Notes: a model not told the origin generated them from the sequence alone. A DNA stretch of 31,663 nt from Patescibacteria group bacterium (GCA_028698375.1 JAQVDI010000001.1:1-31663); one strand, 5' to 3'; shown: positions 574 to 26,670, counted from the first letter of the stretch. Made by a program: numbers and translations.

Positions 574-1389
574 ATGCAACAAAAATATTTAGACCAAACA
601 AATCAGGAATTAAAATTAAGAAATTACAGTTTCAAAACTGTAAAGATTTATCTTGCTTGTTTAAATGAATATTTTGATTTCAAAAAATTTAATTTAGGAA
701 AAATAGACGAAGAAAAAATAAAACAATTTTTGCTAAACAAACAAAACAAAAAATATGCCCCGCAAACAATTAATCTTTATTTAAACGCAATAAAATTTTT
801 CTACCGCGAAGTGCTAAAAAATACCCAAAAGATTAATTTGAAATTTGCCAAACGAAATAAAAAACTGCCGATTGTTTTATCAAGAAAAGAAATCAAAAAT
901 ATTATTGACACAATTAAAAATCCAAAACATAAATTAATAATTTCTTTAACTTACGGTGCCGGACTCCGAATCAACGAAGTGATAAATTTAAAAGTAAAAG
1001 ATATTGATGTGGATGAGCTGGTAATACATTTGAAAAATGCAAAAGGTAAAAAAGACAGAATCACAATTTTTCCTGAAAAATTAAAAAATAGTATATTAAA
1101 TTTAATAATGGGGAAAGATTTTGATGATTATATTTTTGAAAGCGAAAGAGGAGGAAAACTATCAGAAAGAACAGCTCAAAAAGTTTTTAAAAAGGCGCTC
1201 AAAGAAACTAGCATTAAAAAAGATGCCACCTTTCATTCGCTTAGACATTCTTTTGCCACTCATTTATTAGAAAATGGGGTAGATGTTCGTTATGTCCAAG
1301 AACTTCTTGGCCATCAAAATATTAGAACTACTCAAATATATACACAAGTAACTAATCCGAAGCTAAAAAATATTAAAAGTCCCTTATAA
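574..1389 (+). CDS. Tyrosine recombinase, integron-integrase-like but without the IntI insertion
   Basis: N-terminal LKLRNYSFKTVKIY. Catalytic set GLRINE, KGKKDR, HSLRHSFATH, LLGH and TQIY. Ends in SPL. Confidence 0.92.
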   Translation: MQQKYLDQTNQELKLRNYSFKTVKIYLACLNEYFDFKKFNLGKIDEEKIKQFLLNKQNKKYAPQTINLYLNAIKFFYREVLKNTQKINLKFAKRNKKLPIVLSRKEIKNIIDTIKNPKHKLIISLTYGAGLRINEVINLKVKDIDVDELVIHLKNAKGKKDRITIFPEKLKNSILNLIMGKDFDDYIFESERGGKLSERTAQKVFKKALKETSIKKDATFHSLRHSFATHLLENGVDVRYVQELLGHQNIRTTQIYTQVTNPKLKNIKSPL

Positions 1390-1421
1390 CAAAAAAGCGG
1401 GTAATTTGTCTATTTTATAAT

Positions 1422-1510
1422 CGGTGGGGGTGGGATTCGAACCCACGATCATCTTGCGATGATTCCGCTTTTCGAGAGCGGCCCGATCAACCAAACTCCG
1501 GCACCCCACC
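1422..1510 (-). tRNA. tRNA-Ser(CGA)
   Basis: Acceptor GGTGGGG/CCCCACC, anticodon arm CCGCT-CTCGAAA-AGCGG, long variable arm, GGTTCGAATCC T-loop. CCA is not encoded. Confidence 0.95.
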
Positions 1511-1554
1511 AACTATTTATAATTCCATAAAAAAAGAGTAAAATCAATTTAAAA

Positions 1555-1573
1555 GCCCCGTTTATAACGGGGC
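1555..1573 (-). terminator. Intrinsic terminator after the C39-like gene
   Basis: GCCCCGTT/AACGGGGC 8-bp stem followed by a T-run on the minus strand. Confidence 0.7.
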
Positions 1574-1581
1574 CATAATCT

Positions 1582-2703
1582 TTAATTAAAAAACCATTTT
1601 CTCATTGCTTTAAGCAAAATATTCCCAGTTATTTCTTCTGGCAAATAATCTTTTTCAGACTCAACTGATAAATTTATTTTTAAAGTTTTTTGATCTTGTT
1701 CTGTAATTGCTTCATACAGAAAATATTTTTTATGAAGATCAAGATAAATCGTTGATTCAGTCAATTTAACTGCTGGTTGTTCCACCAAAACATCCAAGCA
1801 ATCTTCCATCTCTAAAGCCAAACAATTTTTTCCTATCGGTGTGTTTTCGCGATCGCGCAAAAAACAATTTTGGATATCAACTACTCGCTTAGAGTCTCCG
1901 CCAAAAAGAGGAAGAACTGTTTTTTCCTCAACAATTAATATGTGATTACCAATTTGTTCAACCACCCAAACTTTATAAATAAAATGACTCGTGACAAAAC
2001 CACCAATTCTGCCTTTCAAAAAAGCTCTTTTTAATTTGCATAATGGCTCTTCAAATTCTTCTTTTGGTCGTCTTTTGAATCCAACAATCATTTTGTATCC
2101 GCCAATAGAGTCATTTATTTCTTGCCAAGAATAATTAATATTTTGTTTTTGGCAATCAGGATCTTGACAGATAACACCGTTATCATTATAACCATTGATA
2201 ACCATGATGTGTCCGCCATCATAACCCTTATCTTCACGATTACTTAATGCACCATAATTTGCCAAGGTAAAAATCACCGGAGACTGCTTGTCAATTTCTT
2301 CTTTTATTTTTTCTGCTGAATAATCAACTGCTTCTAATTTTTTAATCTGATAAATATGCTCCGCAGCAGTAATTAGCTCATCCCAACCAGTAGGCCGACC
2401 ATGCGACAAATAATATTCGTCATCAGCTTTTTCTGGTTCTAAAAAAGCATTAATTTTTTTTACATTCTCAAAATCAGCTTTGCGATATTGCATATAAGCC
2501 GCACACATTTCAAGCGAACAAGGTCCACAAGTTTGCGCTCCGCTGATAACTCCAATATCTTCGCCATATTCCAATAGATGTGGAACTGGTAAAATATTTT
2601 CTCCAAATACCGTCGAAAAACAAATCGTCTGTAAAATAATCACAAACCACAAAATAATGGAACATCGAGTTATTTTTCTGATCACTGCTCCCCTTTTTGT
2701 CAA
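1582..2703 (-). CDS. Exported C39-like (papain-fold) cysteine peptidase with an uncharacterised C-terminal domain
   Basis: Hydrophobic N-terminus, QTCGPCSL (Cys), GGHIMVINGY (His), QDP (Asp). Start is uncertain (TTG in the track). Confidence 0.7.
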   Translation of the reverse strand: MTKRGAVIRKITRCSIILWFVIILQTICFSTVFGENILPVPHLLEYGEDIGVISGAQTCGPCSLEMCAAYMQYRKADFENVKKINAFLEPEKADDEYYLSHGRPTGWDELITAAEHIYQIKKLEAVDYSAEKIKEEIDKQSPVIFTLANYGALSNREDKGYDGGHIMVINGYNDNGVICQDPDCQKQNINYSWQEINDSIGGYKMIVGFKRRPKEEFEEPLCKLKRAFLKGRIGGFVTSHFIYKVWVVEQIGNHILIVEEKTVLPLFGGDSKRVVDIQNCFLRDRENTPIGKNCLALEMEDCLDVLVEQPAVKLTESTIYLDLHKKYFLYEAITEQDQKTLKINLSVESEKDYLPEEITGNILLKAMRKWFFN

Positions 2704-2748
2704 AGAACTTCAACAAGATTATTATAAAACAAAAAATCCAGCCATCAA
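2688..2748 (-). promoter_or_regulatory. Promoter + boxA-like motif + SD
   Basis: TTGATG (2748-2743), N16, TATAAT (2726-2721); GTTCTTTGACAA (2708-2697); AAAGGGGAG. Confidence 0.45.
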
Positions 2749-2765
2749 ATATTAAGACAACTGGA

Positions 2766-3062
2766 TTAGATTTTTCTTTTCAATTTTTCAACTAAATTAA
2801 AAATCAACTCCATTAATGCAATTCCTGCAAATAAAAAAGCAAAAATATTAGCAATCACAACCGCCCGACATAATTCTTGAGTTAACGGCGTTCTACCAAA
2901 AGGAGAAATAACAAAACAAAATAAACTAAATGAAACAAAAGCAACAATAAACCATTTGGACAAACAAGGGATGTGAGCTTGATCTGTTTTAAGAAAATAA
3001 ATAACTATAGAAATAACAGTGGCAATTACCAAAAAAATTCCAGCCCAATAGGTAGGTTGCAT
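2766..3062 (-). CDS. Hypothetical small membrane protein (about 3 TM segments)
   Basis: 98 aa, three hydrophobic stretches, AAGGAG 8 nt before the ATG. Confidence 0.7.
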   Translation of the reverse strand: MQPTYWAGIFLVIATVISIVIYFLKTDQAHIPCLSKWFIVAFVSFSLFCFVISPFGRTPLTQELCRAVVIANIFAFLFAGIALMELIFNLVEKLKRKI

Positions 3063-3070
3063 TTTTCTTT

Positions 3071-3126
3071 CTCCTTTTCAAAGATCTTGTACAATTTAAA
3101 TATATTACAAAATTAAAAAAAGTCAA
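3071..3126 (-). promoter_or_regulatory. Promoter + boxA-like motif + SD
   Basis: TTGACT (3126-3121), N16, TATATT (3104-3099); GATCTTTGAAAA (3086-3075) running into AAGGAG. Confidence 0.6.
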
Positions 3127-3134
3127 CAAAAAAA

Positions 3135-3208
3135 TATCCTGGGCAGGGATCGAACCTGCAACCTACAGCTTAGAAGGCTGTCGCTCTAGCCAATTGAGCT
3201 ACCAGGAC
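3135..3208 (-). tRNA. tRNA-Arg(TCT)
   Basis: Acceptor GTCCTGG/CCAGGAT, anticodon arm ACAGC-CTTCTAA-GCTGT, GGTTCGATCC. Confidence 0.95.
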
Positions 3209-3229
3209 ATAATTTGGTTTGTTGACGAA

Positions 3230-3572: not shown

Positions 3573-3665
3573 ATATCTATACTTAAATTATTATGCAAAA
3601 ATTAATCCTAAAAATCAATATCTTAATAAAAAAGTCCGCAATCACCTTTAAGCGCTTAACGGACT

Positions 3666-4652
3666 TTATTGATAGAATAAATTTTTAGAACGCTCTCGCG
3701 AGTTCCCCCAACCAAAGCCACCCTTGTTTCTTTGGTGAGACCCACCAGCTCTTTGAACGCAATAATCATGAAAAGGACAAAGCGTTAAACAATGACAAGC
3801 TGCTTTTTGTTCTAATTTTGAGACTTTAAAACAGATATTAGCTCCAGTGTGCCAAAGAGACTGTAAAGCTTCAAACCAAGACAAATTATAGCGATTAAAC
3901 ATATAAACTAAAAAGTCGCTAACAATATAAGAAGCAGTATTCTTTTTATCAGTACTCCATTCAATCAAAATATTAAAATTACGCATTTCACGAGCAATCC
4001 ACAAATCAACTGGTGCTACTGCAATTTGTTTTAAATCCTTCCAATCGTTTAAGTGATCTTGCCATTCCACATCCTGGAAATAAAGAGCCACTAATTGAGC
4101 TACTTTTTGACCATATCCATAAAAACGTGATAACTCTTTAATCAACCCTGCACGATTCCTAGAAGACTGGTAAAAAATATTACGAGCATCACTATCATAA
4201 TCTTTGCGTAATAAATCTAAATTAAACTTCCAACCAATCAATTTTTCATTTTTTTCTTTTTTGCCCCCTTCTGTTTTAGCAGAAGTAAAAGCCAAAACAG
4301 GTCCAAGCTTTTGTCCAGCTAAATCTTCATTATATTTTAATAAGGGATCAATTAACCACGGGTGTTGATTAAATATATTGCTACCTTCACCTATGGCAAC
4401 ATTTGTTTTTTCACCATAACGATTCAATGATCCGTAAGAAAAAAGATATAACCCATGCATCCTTGAACCATATTCAAAACCTGCAGGCAAATGAACTAAT
4501 TCTGGCTGATCGCAGTTAATTAGATGTTTATATTTTCCATGCCAAGCACTCACAGCCAAATTGAGAACTTCCAAAGCCCTATTCTCATCAAAAATAATCC
4601 AATTTTTACCACGTCTTACTGTGACCAATCCATCTTTTACTGAGATATCCAT
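3666..4652 (-). CDS. HhH-GPD superfamily DNA glycosylase-like protein with C-terminal Cys cluster (paralogue 1)
   Basis: HhH LSRFYGYGQKVAQL, APVDLWIAR, C-x13-C-x3-C-x5-C. Confidence 0.65.
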   Translation of the reverse strand: MDISVKDGLVTVRRGKNWIIFDENRALEVLNLAVSAWHGKYKHLINCDQPELVHLPAGFEYGSRMHGLYLFSYGSLNRYGEKTNVAIGEGSNIFNQHPWLIDPLLKYNEDLAGQKLGPVLAFTSAKTEGGKKEKNEKLIGWKFNLDLLRKDYDSDARNIFYQSSRNRAGLIKELSRFYGYGQKVAQLVALYFQDVEWQDHLNDWKDLKQIAVAPVDLWIAREMRNFNILIEWSTDKKNTASYIVSDFLVYMFNRYNLSWFEALQSLWHTGANICFKVSKLEQKAACHCLTLCPFHDYCVQRAGGSHQRNKGGFGWGNSRERSKNLFYQ

Positions 4653-4658
4653 TTTAGA

Positions 4659-4716
4659 CCTTTTTGTTAAAGGGCGTTAACTTAAAAATTATATAGTTAA
4701 AAATTAATATGTGCAA
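4659..4716 (-). promoter_or_regulatory. Promoter + boxA-like motif
   Basis: TTGCAC (4716-4711), N17, TATAAT (4693-4688); CGCCCTTTAACAA (4676-4664); weak SD AAAAGG. Confidence 0.6.
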
Positions 4717-4727
4717 ATAAACAAAAA

Positions 4728-4751
4728 AACCCGCCAAGATCATGACGGGTT
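4728..4751 (-). terminator. Intrinsic terminator overlapping the stop of glycosylase paralogue 2
   Basis: Minus strand AACCCGTCA/TGGCGGGTT stem followed by a T-run. Confidence 0.6.
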
Positions 4752-5681
4752 GGAAGAAAATAAAGTTAATCGTGGAAAAGCATAATTCCAATTCATAGTA
4801 CCATCAACTTTATACATTGAACCAGTACAAATGCGTTTACAATATCTGTTAAATGGACATTCAACATAACAATAGCTACCAACCGAATAAGGATCCATCG
4901 GACGTTTAACACAAATCTGTCCAGCATGCCAGAAAGCATTTGATAACCGACTATGATTAATATTATAATCATGGCAAATTTTTGCAATAAATTCACTTGT
5001 CGGCAAACGAACAGCATCATGTTGATCAGTATCCCAATTTATAACAATATCCCATTGTCTCATAAATCGTAAAATCCAAAGATCCACCGGCATCATCTCA
5101 ATCTCACGAATTTCTTTCCAATCTTTTTCACAATATTGCCAAGCGACATCTTGATACCAAATTGCAGCTAATTGAGCCACTTTAGAAGCAATACCATAAA
5201 AATTCGATAAAGCGGAGATAACGCCTTCGCGAGAACGTTCTGCTCTTAAAATAATTTCGCCCGGATCTCCATCATATTGATCACGTAAAATCTTCAAATT
5301 ATGTCGCCAACCATCAATTCGCAATTTTCCTTCTCGACCTAATTCTGAATTAATGGAAACAAAACCCATAACTCCAGATAACAACTGATGATAATCCAAA
5401 TTCTCAAAATCAGACATAGGGTCAATTAATCGTGGATCTAATACAATTGATTTTGAGAACTTAGGCATGGCACGATTTGACGCTTGGCCATAACGATTAA
5501 TTGCTGCTCCAAAAAAAATCCAACGCCTATGATCAACTGAACCATATTTAATAAAATCAGGCATATAGACAACTTCCGGTTGCTTCATCTTACCGTAACC
5601 AAGAATTTTATTTTCCCAAGCCCAAACTGCATATTTAAAAATTTCAATGGCCCTTTCATTATCAAACTCAAGATTTGCCAT
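4740..5681 (-). CDS. HhH-GPD superfamily DNA glycosylase-like protein with C-terminal Cys cluster (paralogue 2)
   Basis: HhH LSNFYGIASKVAQL, MPVDLWILR, C-x13-C-x3-C-x5-C. The ATG at 5681 is preferred over the TTG at 5687 because AAGGAG lies 6 nt upstream. Confidence 0.65.
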   Translation of the reverse strand: MANLEFDNERAIEIFKYAVWAWENKILGYGKMKQPEVVYMPDFIKYGSVDHRRWIFFGAAINRYGQASNRAMPKFSKSIVLDPRLIDPMSDFENLDYHQLLSGVMGFVSINSELGREGKLRIDGWRHNLKILRDQYDGDPGEIILRAERSREGVISALSNFYGIASKVAQLAAIWYQDVAWQYCEKDWKEIREIEMMPVDLWILRFMRQWDIVINWDTDQHDAVRLPTSEFIAKICHDYNINHSRLSNAFWHAGQICVKRPMDPYSVGSYCYVECPFNRYCKRICTGSMYKVDGTMNWNYAFPRLTLFSSNPS

Positions 5682-5686
5682 TTGCA

Positions 5687-5744
5687 ACTCCTTTTCAAAG
5701 AGCGTTAGCTTTAAAATTTTAGAACTAAAAAATAGTTAGGTCAA
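5687..5744 (-). promoter_or_regulatory. Promoter + boxA-like motif + SD
   Basis: TTGACC (5744-5739), N17, TAAAAT (5721-5716); CGCTCTTTGAAAA (5704-5692) running into AAGGAG. Confidence 0.65.
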
Positions 5745-8750: not shown

Positions 8751-9881
8751 ATGAAAAATATTAAAAAAAACTTCTCGACAAGCTCGCAGAATAAAAAATT
8801 GCCACTCTCCGACAAGCTCAGAATAAACTCTCCTCAGAATGACCAAGTGGTGGCAGTGGGCATGAGCGGCGGGATTGATTCCACTATAACGGCTTATCTT
8901 TTAAAAAAACAAGGCTACAAAGTAGTTGGATTAACAATGATGTTAAAAAATGACAAGCAAAAACAACAGGAAATTAAAAAGATAACTGAAAAATTAAAAA
9001 TAAAAAATTATTTTATTGATTTATCAAAAGATTTCAAAAAAATCGTTCTTGATTATTATCGTCAAGAATATTTGAATGGACGCACGCCTAACCCTTGTAT
9101 TATCTGCAACCAAAAAATTAAGTTTGATTTGTTGCTAAAGACCGCTAAAAAAAGTGGAATTCAGTTTGATTTTTTTGCTACTGGCCACTATGTCCGTCTT
9201 GCTAAAGATCCAAAAACTAGATGTTTTTTCTTAAAAAAAGGCAAAGATACTAAAAAAGATCAATCATATTTTTTATATCGGCTTAACCAGATACAATTAA
9301 AAAATTTAATTTTCCCCTTAGGTAATTTAACTAAAAATAAAGTCAAAAAAATGGCTTTACAATTAGGATTTAAGGAATTGCTGGCTAAACCAGAAAGCCA
9401 AGATTTTTTTAACTGTGCTGATCAAAATAATTTATTCGACAAAACAAAGATTAAAACTGGCGACATTATTAATCACCATAAAAAAATTGTCGGAAAACAT
9501 AACGGAATTATTAATTATACAATTGGTCAAAGAAAAGGCCTTTCTGGTGGTGGAACAAAAATTCCCATGTATGTAATAAAAATTAATACGACAAAAAATC
9601 AAATTATGATCGGGCCTCGCAAAAAACTCTTAGCTAAAAAATTAATAGCAATTTCACCAAACTGGATTTCAATTAAACAACCAGAAAAAAAATTATTAGC
9701 GTACGCAAAAATTCGTTTTGGAGCCAAATCTGCAAAATGCCAAATCAAATTAATAGAAAACAACCAATTAAAAGTAGAATTTAAAAACCCCCAATTTGCA
9801 ATTACCCCCGGACAATCAATTGTTTTTTATCAAAAAAATTTGCTTTTAGGTGGAGCAATTATTTCTCAAATTTTAATATAA
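8751..9881 (+). CDS. mnmA: tRNA 2-thiouridine(34) synthase MnmA
   Basis: SGGIDS PP-loop, GRTPNPCIICN, ATGHYVR, KDQSYFL, YTIGQRKG, AITPGQS. The start may instead be GTG 8847. Confidence 0.93.
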   Translation: MKNIKKNFSTSSQNKKLPLSDKLRINSPQNDQVVAVGMSGGIDSTITAYLLKKQGYKVVGLTMMLKNDKQKQQEIKKITEKLKIKNYFIDLSKDFKKIVLDYYRQEYLNGRTPNPCIICNQKIKFDLLLKTAKKSGIQFDFFATGHYVRLAKDPKTRCFFLKKGKDTKKDQSYFLYRLNQIQLKNLIFPLGNLTKNKVKKMALQLGFKELLAKPESQDFFNCADQNNLFDKTKIKTGDIINHHKKIVGKHNGIINYTIGQRKGLSGGGTKIPMYVIKINTTKNQIMIGPRKKLLAKKLIAISPNWISIKQPEKKLLAYAKIRFGAKSAKCQIKLIENNQLKVEFKNPQFAITPGQSIVFYQKNLLLGGAIISQILI

Positions 9882-10856: not shown

Positions 10857-11660
10857 TTAATGCCCCCTAAGATTTCGACCTTTCCAATAACCTTGAGAAT
10901 ACCCAGAATAATAAGGGCTATAACAACCCTTTTTAGCATTACCGGGAGGAGGATCCCAAACACCATTATAACCATCAATATATCCAACTTCTACACCTTG
11001 GCTATGAACATTTTGATTATATTTACCTCGAACCTTATGAGGTGCCTTAATCAAATGTTGCGGATGCTTCGCTTGGGGTACAGATCTTTCTCTAGCTTGG
11101 TTATTTGAATTGTGACGATAACCAAAACCAGTTCTTTCATCGCTAGAGTAATTACCGCTATTATTTTGGTATGCAACCTGATCAGAGTTAACTGTAACTC
11201 GATCAGAATAAGACAAGGGATCTGTCCTGCCAATGCAATTACCCCGATCATCATAATGATAAATAGAACCATTATCCTGCTGAATTGATTGGCCAATCAA
11301 TTGGCCTTGTTGACCATAATGAACAGTTTGACTCCCATTATGAACTGACTGCCCAACTTGATTTGAACCAAAAATGCCATCAATCCAACCCATATAACCA
11401 CCAGCATAATGATAATCTCTATCTCCTACAGAAATTGTATGCCCAGATGATCGGCCGCTAGAATCAAAATGATTAGTACCTAAGCCACCTGATTCAGAAT
11501 GACCAGCCGAAGAGCCATCACCAGAATAATGAGATCCATTACCGCTAAAGTTATTACCGCTAGAATTAGAATTAGAACCATTAAATATATCTACTTCATT
11601 TGCAAAACCAGCAGCCAATTCTCCAAGTGCTCCAAGTATGCCACCATCATTTTTACCCAT
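10857..11660 (-). CDS. Hypothetical G/S/N/Q/Y/H-rich low-complexity repeat protein
   Basis: Long open frame with its own promoter, SD and terminator. The ATG at 11660 is preferred over the GTG at 11669 (AAGGAG 8 nt upstream). Confidence 0.7.
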   Translation of the reverse strand: MGKNDGGILGALGELAAGFANEVDIFNGSNSNSSGNNFSGNGSHYSGDGSSAGHSESGGLGTNHFDSSGRSSGHTISVGDRDYHYAGGYMGWIDGIFGSNQVGQSVHNGSQTVHYGQQGQLIGQSIQQDNGSIYHYDDRGNCIGRTDPLSYSDRVTVNSDQVAYQNNSGNYSSDERTGFGYRHNSNNQARERSVPQAKHPQHLIKAPHKVRGKYNQNVHSQGVEVGYIDGYNGVWDPPPGNAKKGCYSPYYSGYSQGYWKGRNLRGH

Positions 11661-11667
11661 TTCACTC

Positions 11668-11727
11668 ACTCCTTTTCAAAGAGCGTTAGCTACTTTAAAA
11701 TATACCATTTAAATATTGGTTTGTAAA
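11668..11727 (-). promoter_or_regulatory. Promoter + boxA-like motif + SD
   Basis: TTTACA (11727-11722), N17, TGn-TATATT (11704-11699); CGCTCTTTGAAAA (11685-11673) running into AAGGAG. Confidence 0.65.
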
Positions 11728-25617: not shown

Positions 25618-26670
25618 CTATTTTATTAGCATACAATCGCCGAAACTAAAAAAACGATATTTCTTTTTAACAGCTTCACGATATGCTTTGAATATTTTGT
25701 CACGGCCGGCAAAAGCGCTCTTGTCCGCCGAAGTTTTAGCAAAAGCGGAAACCAAAAATAATAATGAACTTTTTGGCAAATGAAAGTTAGTAAGCATAGC
25801 ATCAACAAATTTAAATTTATATGGTGGATAAATATAAATTGAAGTTTCTTTATTATGTTCATGCAAAATGCCCTTTCCGTCCGTAGCGGTTTCTAAAGCA
25901 CGAGCCACAGTCGTACCAATAGCCAAAATTTTTTTACCTTCTTTTTTCTTTTGATTCAAAAAGTCTGCAGTTTTTTGAGTAATCACCATTTTCTCATTAT
26001 GAATCTTGTGATCTTCAATTTTTTTAGATTTTACTGGGGCAAATGTCCCCCACCCCACTTCAAGCGTTAAAAAAGCAAATTTAATTTTTTTATTTTTCAA
26101 TCTATTTAAAATACGAGGCGTAAAATGCAAAGATGCTGTTGGCGCCGCTACAGAGCCGTCAATTTTAGCAAAAATACTTTGATATTTTTTTCTTGCCTCA
26201 TTTTCTTTCATTTGACTTTTAATATAAGGAGGTAAAGGCATCTGCCCTTTTTTTCTTAAAAATTCTCTTAAAATACAATCACCTTTTAAAATTTTGATCC
26301 GAAAAATTTGATCTTTAAAATTAATTACTTGCAACTGGATTTGTCGGCTTAAAGTAATTTTAGTGCCAATAGTTATTTTACCTTTGATCAAAACTTCCCA
26401 AACTTTTTGGGTCAATTTTTTAACAAATAGCACTTCTACTTTTCCTCCTGTTTCTTTATAACCAAAAACACGAGCTGGCATAACCTGAGTGTTGTTAAAA
26501 ACTAACACATATTTTTCATCCAAAATCTTTGGCAAATCAAAAAAATTAGAATGAAAAATTGCTCCATTCAAACGATCCAAAATCATCATCCGGCTATGAT
26601 CTCGGGGATTATTTGGTTCTTGAGCGATTAAACCTACTGGCAATTTATAATTAAAATTTTCTTTTTCCAT
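25618..26670 (-). CDS. queA: S-adenosylmethionine:tRNA ribosyltransferase-isomerase QueA
   Basis: LIAQEP, VFNNTQV, GQMPLPPYI, AAPTASLHF, TNFHLPKS, RFFSFGD. Confidence 0.96.
   Translation of the reverse strand: MEKENFNYKLPVGLIAQEPNNPRDHSRMMILDRLNGAIFHSNFFDLPKILDEKYVLVFNNTQVMPARVFGYKETGGKVEVLFVKKLTQKVWEVLIKGKITIGTKITLSRQIQLQVINFKDQIFRIKILKGDCILREFLRKKGQMPLPPYIKSQMKENEARKKYQSIFAKIDGSVAAPTASLHFTPRILNRLKNKKIKFAFLTLEVGWGTFAPVKSKKIEDHKIHNEKMVITQKTADFLNQKKKEGKKILAIGTTVARALETATDGKGILHEHNKETSIYIYPPYKFKFVDAMLTNFHLPKSSLLFLVSAFAKTSADKSAFAGRDKIFKAYREAVKKKYRFFSFGDCMLIK

Follow-up and report, generated by a model that had tools for sequence, protein, structure and literature searches.

What do two adjacent and similar genes encode in a Patescibacteria group bacterium, when neither product matches any Pfam family? 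The genes in question lie on the minus strand of a 31,663-nucleotide stretch of DNA (GCA_028698375.1 JAQVDI010000001.1:1-31663, hereafter the window, meaning the whole stretch analysed), between positions 3,666 and 5,681, and are referred to here as A (encoding protein P0001) and B (P0002). The window is contig C33 of a genome of 630,756 bp in 75 contigs, which is 92.5% complete and has a GC content of 33.5%. A preliminary description had taken A and B for tandem, divergent paralogues of the HhH-GPD (helix-hairpin-helix) glycosylases, located in an accessory tRNA hotspot and better suited to defence or modified-base processing than to ordinary repair. We favor another role: judging by sequence comparisons and a structural model, A and B are probably bifunctional DNA glycosylase/apurinic-apyrimidinic (AP) lyases of an unannotated [4Fe-4S]-type HhH-GPD branch, acting in repair beside Fpg and Xth. 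Nothing found points to anti-phage defence.

The two proteins are 36% identical over 301 residues (BLASTP, E 2e-68), and the motifs that the preliminary description had listed as shared, i.e., FD..RA.E, QPE.V..P, YGS..H, NRYG, LIDP, GW..NL..LR..YD, FYG...KVAQL, QDV.W and PVDLWI, all fall within this alignment, confirming the pair as tandem paralogues. Both also carry the Cys motif C-x13-C-x3-C-x5-C, at residues 274-298 of A and 257-281 of B. Searches with either protein gave no Pfam family at E<=10, and so no PF00730, PF10343 or PF09171; the PADLOC and PHROG models gave no match, and no PDB chain was found by sequence search. The sole NCBIfam model touching P0001 is TIGR03252, an uncharacterised "HhH-GPD-type base excision DNA repair protein", which only touches residues 147-189 (the Y.GD...F.G.G.K region) at E 0.084; since its 12.5 bits compare with a cut-off of 136.5, P0001 is not a member of it. 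A word-indexed homologue search yielded one to three relatives only, and it took an exhaustive profile search, covering 1.84 billion cluster representatives, to find 144 at E<=1e-3, including 55 at E<=1e-30. When ten of the members were looked up, a single cluster was named, as "hypothetical protein" of Candidatus Berkelbacteria. What is new here is the family itself, named by no library; its fold, chemistry and cluster are already of a known kind.

An alignment of 80 family members, with 19-60% identity to P0001, was used to assess which residues are conserved. D216 is present in all 80, K183 and G179 in 77 each and P214 in 50, while the Cys residues at positions 274, 288, 292 and 298 are kept in 71, 72, 79 and 79 members, respectively, and this near-complete retention argues that the Cys/Lys/Asp pattern is not due to chance. 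Between the first two Cys there are 4 to 39 residues (mode 13-15); the second spacing equals 3 in 62 members and the third equals 5 in 79. The loop that the Cys delimit opens with a basic C-x-K/R-K/R-P-K/R sequence, and its net charge averages +2.6 (for the family, the median isoelectric point is 8.7). The Lys-Asp spacing is 33 in both A and B, which is also the family mode. Family proteins are ~100 residues longer than Nth and MutY, a length that includes a C-terminal tail with conserved G311, W315, R321, L325 and F326 together with, in A-type proteins, a beta extension at the N-terminus. PF00730 is matched by only one of the 80 members (E 0.008), and the four families that any of them matched at E<=0.01 do not include PF10343.

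We aligned the family profile with nine Nth proteins from the same phylum using hhalign, and obtained a 94% probability (E 1.3e-7), with K183 placed on the Lys of the Nth GVGRK motif and D216 on the Asp of its VD motif. GYGQK of A and GIASK of B both align to GVGRK, with the Lys two residues past the hairpin G-x-G. As the preliminary description had supposed, the Lys/Asp pair thus occupies the catalytic positions of EndoIII, the Lys that of the nucleophile in EndoIII and OGG1, though the alignment shows an explicit 15-residue insertion between the two residues, owing to which their spacing is 33 rather than the ~18 of EndoIII. In the alignment of the family profile with Geobacillus MutY, PVD falls on the AVD motif, D216 on the MutY catalytic Asp and all four family Cys one-to-one on the cluster ligands, with insertions of seven residues and one residue, indicating that the Cys motif is homologous to the EndoIII/MutY [4Fe-4S] loop but has a non-canonical spacing (x13-x3-x5, compared to the C-x6-C-x2-C-x5-C of EndoIII and MutY). 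The link to MutY rests on this alignment, as hhalign against a small and heterogeneous MutY/Mig alignment gave a probability of 4.5% only. In EndoIII and MutY the cluster loop contacts the DNA backbone, and the basic loop of the family fits a similar backbone-binding role. The suggestion that PVDxW makes the pair Ogg/AlkA-like rather than EndoIII-like did not hold, as the residue two after the Asp is W in 46 of 80 members but H in 31, making the EndoIII-type VDxH common in the family, and the profile ties the family to Nth.

AlphaFold2, run on P0001 with the 80-member alignment, produced a model with a mean pLDDT (predicted local distance difference test) of 95.3 and a pTM (predicted template modelling score) of 0.92; an earlier run on three sequences only (pLDDT 38) was discarded. 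The model is a two-lobed, mostly helical fold with a central helix-hairpin-helix and no strands from residue 23 to 228 (DSSP). Residues 1-22 form a three-strand N-terminal extension, lacking in B, one strand of which pairs with a strand 13 residues past the Asp. In structure comparisons the top match was human QNG1 (score 15.4, 257 residues aligned), followed by Escherichia coli EndoIII (14.9, 209/211 residues aligned, root-mean-square deviation 3.0), NTHL1 (14.6), MIG (13.8), MutY (13.7) and both MagIII and AGOG (12.6), with the OGG and AlkA types lower. The model and these matches support the HhH-GPD fold that had been proposed for the pair. A predicted A-B heterodimer scored 0.00, a result that has no weight either way and was not used as evidence.

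Put together, these features suggest how the enzymes may work. The HhH hairpin and the basic iron-sulfur loop would grip the DNA backbone, a damaged or unusual base would be flipped into the cleft separating the two lobes, and the Asp would promote cleavage of the glycosidic bond. The Lys would form a Schiff base at C1' and nick the strand by beta-elimination, for which reason we propose that the enzymes are bifunctional glycosylase/lyases; cleaning of the 3' end would fall to the Xth-type nuclease of the genome. A and B would serve as the only HhH-GPD glycosylases of this genome, alongside Fpg.

The repair inventory of the genome was also examined. At 92.5% completeness the genome holds no match to PF00730, UDG or Nfo, while Fpg/Nei is found on contig C60 and an Xth-type nuclease on contig C27. 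Canonical HhH-GPD genes were thus not found and Fpg was, and A and B are the only HhH-GPD-type genes found in the genome. The preliminary description had allowed that its defence proposal would fall if the pair were the genome's only EndoIII/Ogg orthologues and had ordinary lesion specificity; the first half of this agrees with the inventory.

Across a sample of 401 genomes of the phylum, the family was detected in 35 (~9%), in 31 of them with strong matches, and it is found mainly in lineages with ultra-small genomes. PF00730 occurs in 207 of the 401 (52%). We had expected the family to alternate with canonical Nth, and rejected this idea, as PF00730 is also found in 17 of the 31 genomes with strong family matches. 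Within the window's own class, PF00730 is missing from all three genomes that have the family, and 15 others have neither.

Is the pair itself an old arrangement? In a metagenomic relative (L023) the gene order is the same as in the window, i.e., ABC transporter, DUF5652, B, A, tRNA-Ile, tRNA-Lys and tRNA-Arg, with A 59.5% and B 53.8% identical to the window's copies and a terminator, a promoter and a leader again belonging to each gene separately; in L025, a third lineage, B comes after A. The copies from these three lineages separate in a maximum-likelihood tree into an A clade (support 99) and a B clade (support 100), and the duplication is therefore older than these lineages, with both copies retained. 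The nonsynonymous rate (dN) is well below the synonymous rate (dS), but saturation of the latter (dS above 1) makes the dN/dS ratio unreliable. Only 13 differences are fixed between the A and B types, B having an altered version (DPGEII) of the family motif DPRNIF. Lying side by side in three lineages, the two copies probably differ in substrate.

Several observations weigh against a role in repair as proposed here. The distribution of the family is patchy, and the lack of alternation with canonical HhH-GPD genes means that it is no simple replacement for Nth. Between the window and L025, A diverges much faster than B (40% compared to 73% identity). With its Lys-Asp spacing of 33 and its extra strand pair, the family is closer in these features to QNG1 and AGOG than to EndoIII.

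The archaeal 8-oxoguanine glycosylase AGOG (PF09171) has a long linker between its catalytic Lys140 and Asp172 (PMC3397491), a feature it shares with the family, and the nearest ESM Atlas cluster has PF09171 in 10% of its members. AGOG differs from the family in having a non-canonical hairpin and no Fe-S cluster.

Some of these observations could also be read in favor of anti-phage defence. Dag1 and Dag2 are integron-encoded defence glycosylases of the HhH superfamily that need Lys, Asp and Trp (preprint 10.1101/2025.10.29.685425), and A and B might likewise nick invading phage DNA after excising modified bases from it, such as 7-deazaguanines or hypermodified pyrimidines, with two paralogues widening the range of modifications covered. 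Compared by description only, the family shares with Dag1/Dag2 the HhH-superfamily fold, the Lys/Asp/Trp residues (with a conserved aromatic residue or His two positions past the Asp) and a patchy distribution. The unusually fast divergence of A and the tyrosine recombinase 2.3 kb away, adjoining a variable slot, would suit such a role, as would the failure to find the family in a sampled genome of the same taxonomic family (G338). Comparison of the two genomes was otherwise uninformative, with only the ABC transporter common to both (48-53% identity) and synteny lost beyond it. On the same descriptive basis, no iron-sulfur cluster or loop is reported for the Dag proteins.

The genomic context speaks for housekeeping instead. 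We compared the neighbourhoods (plus or minus 8 kb) of 20 other family members and found no conserved gene partner; the three genes on each side are mainly housekeeping (DnaX, ArgRS, GluRS, MreB, DnaB, RNR, ClpP, NUDIX), and PADLOC matches among them are scattered and to generic domains, with no recurrent defence partner. No recombinase like that of the window lies within 8 kb in 21 other loci, and tblastn detected no copy of the family among 50,697 phage and 72,556 plasmid records; a scan of viral contigs with uninformative N-terminal patterns confirmed nothing, which says little. The GC content of the pair, 34.7%, is typical of the genome (33.5%, standard deviation 4% per kb). The Dag preprint separates defence from housekeeping glycosylases by mobile or defence neighbours and AT-shifted DNA (preprint 10.1101/2025.10.29.685425), and the family falls on the housekeeping side in each respect, given its housekeeping neighbours and DNA that is not AT-shifted. 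Nor is an accessory tRNA hotspot supported, as the pair occupies the same position in L023, at 54-60% identity, while the slot beyond tRNA-Arg varies; because the content of this slot differs between the window and L023, it adjoins the pair and does not contain it. The two proteins have no PADLOC or PHROG match either; the defence role that had been put forward for the pair thus finds no support here, and we consider it unlikely. A bolder version, in which an Fe-S HhH-GPD lineage reads non-canonical bases in foreign DNA, A and B form a two-specificity module with fast-evolving A tracking phage modifications, and Dag-like immunity arose independently in Patescibacteria, is in our view also unlikely. 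Were defence the true function, glycosylase-based immunity would extend to episymbiotic bacteria.

A second alternative is that A and B liberate the base of free nucleotides or nucleosides, e.g., a 7-deazaguanine precursor for Tgt/QueA, and do not act on DNA. The queuosine-5'-monophosphate N-glycosylase QNG1 (DUF2419) has its K199 and D231 32 residues apart, acts on a free nucleotide, closes its DNA cleft with beta-hairpin insertions and has no iron-sulfur cluster (PMC9881137). Its Lys-Asp spacing is close to the 33 of the family, the extra two-strand sheet formed by the N-terminus and the strand past the Asp corresponds to QNG1 beta1/beta6, and QNG1 is the top structural match. The family nevertheless has a canonical HhH hairpin, in the model apparently without the QNG1 insertion, and a basic iron-sulfur loop like that with which EndoIII and MutY contact DNA; PF10343 is not matched by either window protein, and no link to Tgt was found. 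Tgt (G000:C24:2733-3872) and QueA (window 25618-26670) are present in the genome and QueC was not found, the only PF06508 match being the PP-loop of MnmA (8751-9881), so that the organism probably has to import a 7-deazaguanine precursor, e.g., preQ1 or preQ0, a need that a QNG1-like enzyme could answer. Queuosine salvage was rejected as the function of the family, however, as Tgt occurs in 26 of the 30 genomes examined that have the family and in 31 of the 32 that do not, being missing from four of the former (one a single-contig genome) compared to one of the latter. We give a nucleotide N-glycosylase a slim chance.

That the two are catalytically silent DNA-binding or structural proteins merely retaining the fold, as the DPGEII and G-I-A-S-K of B (for DPRNIF and G-x-G-x-K) and the lack of a member with known activity might suggest, is highly improbable, since both copies and the divergent family members alike retain the Lys, the Asp and the four Cys, the pattern expected from selection on catalysis.

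DNA glycosylase/AP lyases acting in repair thus remain our preferred interpretation of A and B, and the features of the two genes on which it bears are listed below.

Table 1. Positions in the window of the A and B genes, their predicted functional motifs and their putative expression signals.
Feature	Position	Strand	Basis
A-type paralogue (P0001), 328 aa, ATG start	3666..4652	-	ORF (open reading frame) and translation
A: HhH motif FYGYGQKVAQL with K183 (codon 4104-4106), 15-residue insertion, PVD	3999..4124	-	conservation, Nth alignment
A: catalytic-position D216 (codon 4005-4007) in PVD, then W218	within 3999..4124	-	Nth alignment
A: predicted [4Fe-4S] loop C274-x13-C288-x3-C292-x5-C298	3759..3833	-	MutY cluster Cys alignment, family conservation
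Probable terminator just past A stop, hairpin AGTCCG ... CGGACT then T-run	3626..3665	-	read from sequence
Leader 5' of A, boxA-like motif and Shine-Dalgarno	4659-4682	-	within 4659..4717
Promoter-like site 5' of A, TTTGCA-18-TATAAT	4688-4717	-	within 4659..4717
B-type paralogue (P0002), 313 aa from in-frame ATG at 5681 (ORF spans 4740-5687)	4740..5681	-	ORF and translation
B: HhH motif FYGIASKVAQL with K167 (codon 5181-5183), insertion, PVD with D200 (codon 5082-5084)	5076..5201	-	sequence
B: predicted [4Fe-4S] loop C257-x13-C271-x3-C275-x5-C281	4839..4913	-	sequence
Terminator-like hairpin and T-run, overlapping B stop codon	4728..4751	-	sequence
Leader motif 5' of B, as before A	5687-5710	-	within 5687..5744
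Promoter-like site 5' of B, TTGACC-17-TAAAAT	5716-5744	-	within 5687..5744

Separate transcription of the two genes, as had been claimed, is plausible given the hairpin in the intergenic gap, a promoter-like site for each gene and a shared leader motif with a Shine-Dalgarno sequence. The hairpin distal to A was not called by the pattern scan because its loop is long. The 24-nt leader of B (AGCTAACGCTCTTTGAAAAGGAGT) recurs identically 5' of ORF 10857-11669, at 11668-11691 on the minus strand; it resembles boxA (CGCTCTTT) and continues into the Shine-Dalgarno sequence. Variants of it precede A and, at 3070-3093 on the minus strand, ORF 2766-3062, and CCTTGAAAAGGAG is kept 5' of the A and B genes of both relatives, L023 and L025. 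From its sequence the element looks like a shared translation or antitermination leader rather than a recombination site. The 270-aa product of ORF 10857-11669 (minus strand) falls in no Pfam family, and the ORF has internal direct repeats at 11130-11165 and 11532-11567 (75% identity); its matches are weak, to a tail-assembly PHROG (E 0.002) and to a PADLOC JAB model (E 0.014).

The tyrosine recombinase of the window (574-1389) abuts tRNA-Ser. The variable slot, running from tRNA-Arg to tRNA-Ser (1421-3209 in the window, 5856-7702 in L023), holds in the window a 98-aa ORF and a C39-like peptidase with a weak match to an endolysin PHROG, and in L023 three unrelated genes, with tRNA-Ser inverted. 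We also considered that the genes might be integron-type cassettes of this recombinase and rejected the idea: they converge on the recombinase, a separate promoter-like site and terminator accompany each of them, the repeated element is a Shine-Dalgarno leader and not attC-like, and gene order is kept in L023. Elsewhere, a ParB_N-domain protein of ~330 aa (L034 3257-4249 and L042 9259-10260) adjoins the family gene in two genomes of one taxonomic family, f24, and a relative lies within ~3 kb in a third genome (L033), which may be a local association only.

Within the family, some members depart from the common architecture. P0044 (404 aa) and P0052, P0053 and P0062 (456-467 aa) are extended C-terminally by 100-150 residues that match no Pfam family; two of the extended members bear the automatic UniProt name "PD-(D/E)XK endonuclease-like domain-containing protein", possibly set off by the Cys motif. 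A short, clusterless subfamily of 244-259 aa (L039 7991-8743, L040 7994-8773, L045 8021-8755) keeps Y.GDPR.IF, F.G.GPKIG and PPVD.HD and stops before the Cys loop (..ALWLLGSEGKPK..); it occurs together with a canonical PF00730 gene in all six sampled genomes of family f57. Separately, Patescibacteria Nth homologues of ~200 aa with GVGRKTA and without C-x6-C-x2-C-x5-C (L054 726-1328, L058 729-1334, L060 679-1338, L063 688-1299) appear, by their sequences, to be clusterless EndoIII-type proteins.

The family thus combines an EndoIII/MutY-type Fe-S loop with an AGOG/QNG1-type Lys-Asp linker, features held to mark separate branches, and its clusterless relatives make it a useful natural series on the role of the cluster in glycosylases. 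About half of the sampled Patescibacteria genomes have no recognisable HhH-GPD glycosylase, and their repair inventories are very small; if A, B and their relatives are indeed an unrecognised family of glycosylases, annotation-based claims that base excision repair is missing would be partly wrong in these lineages.

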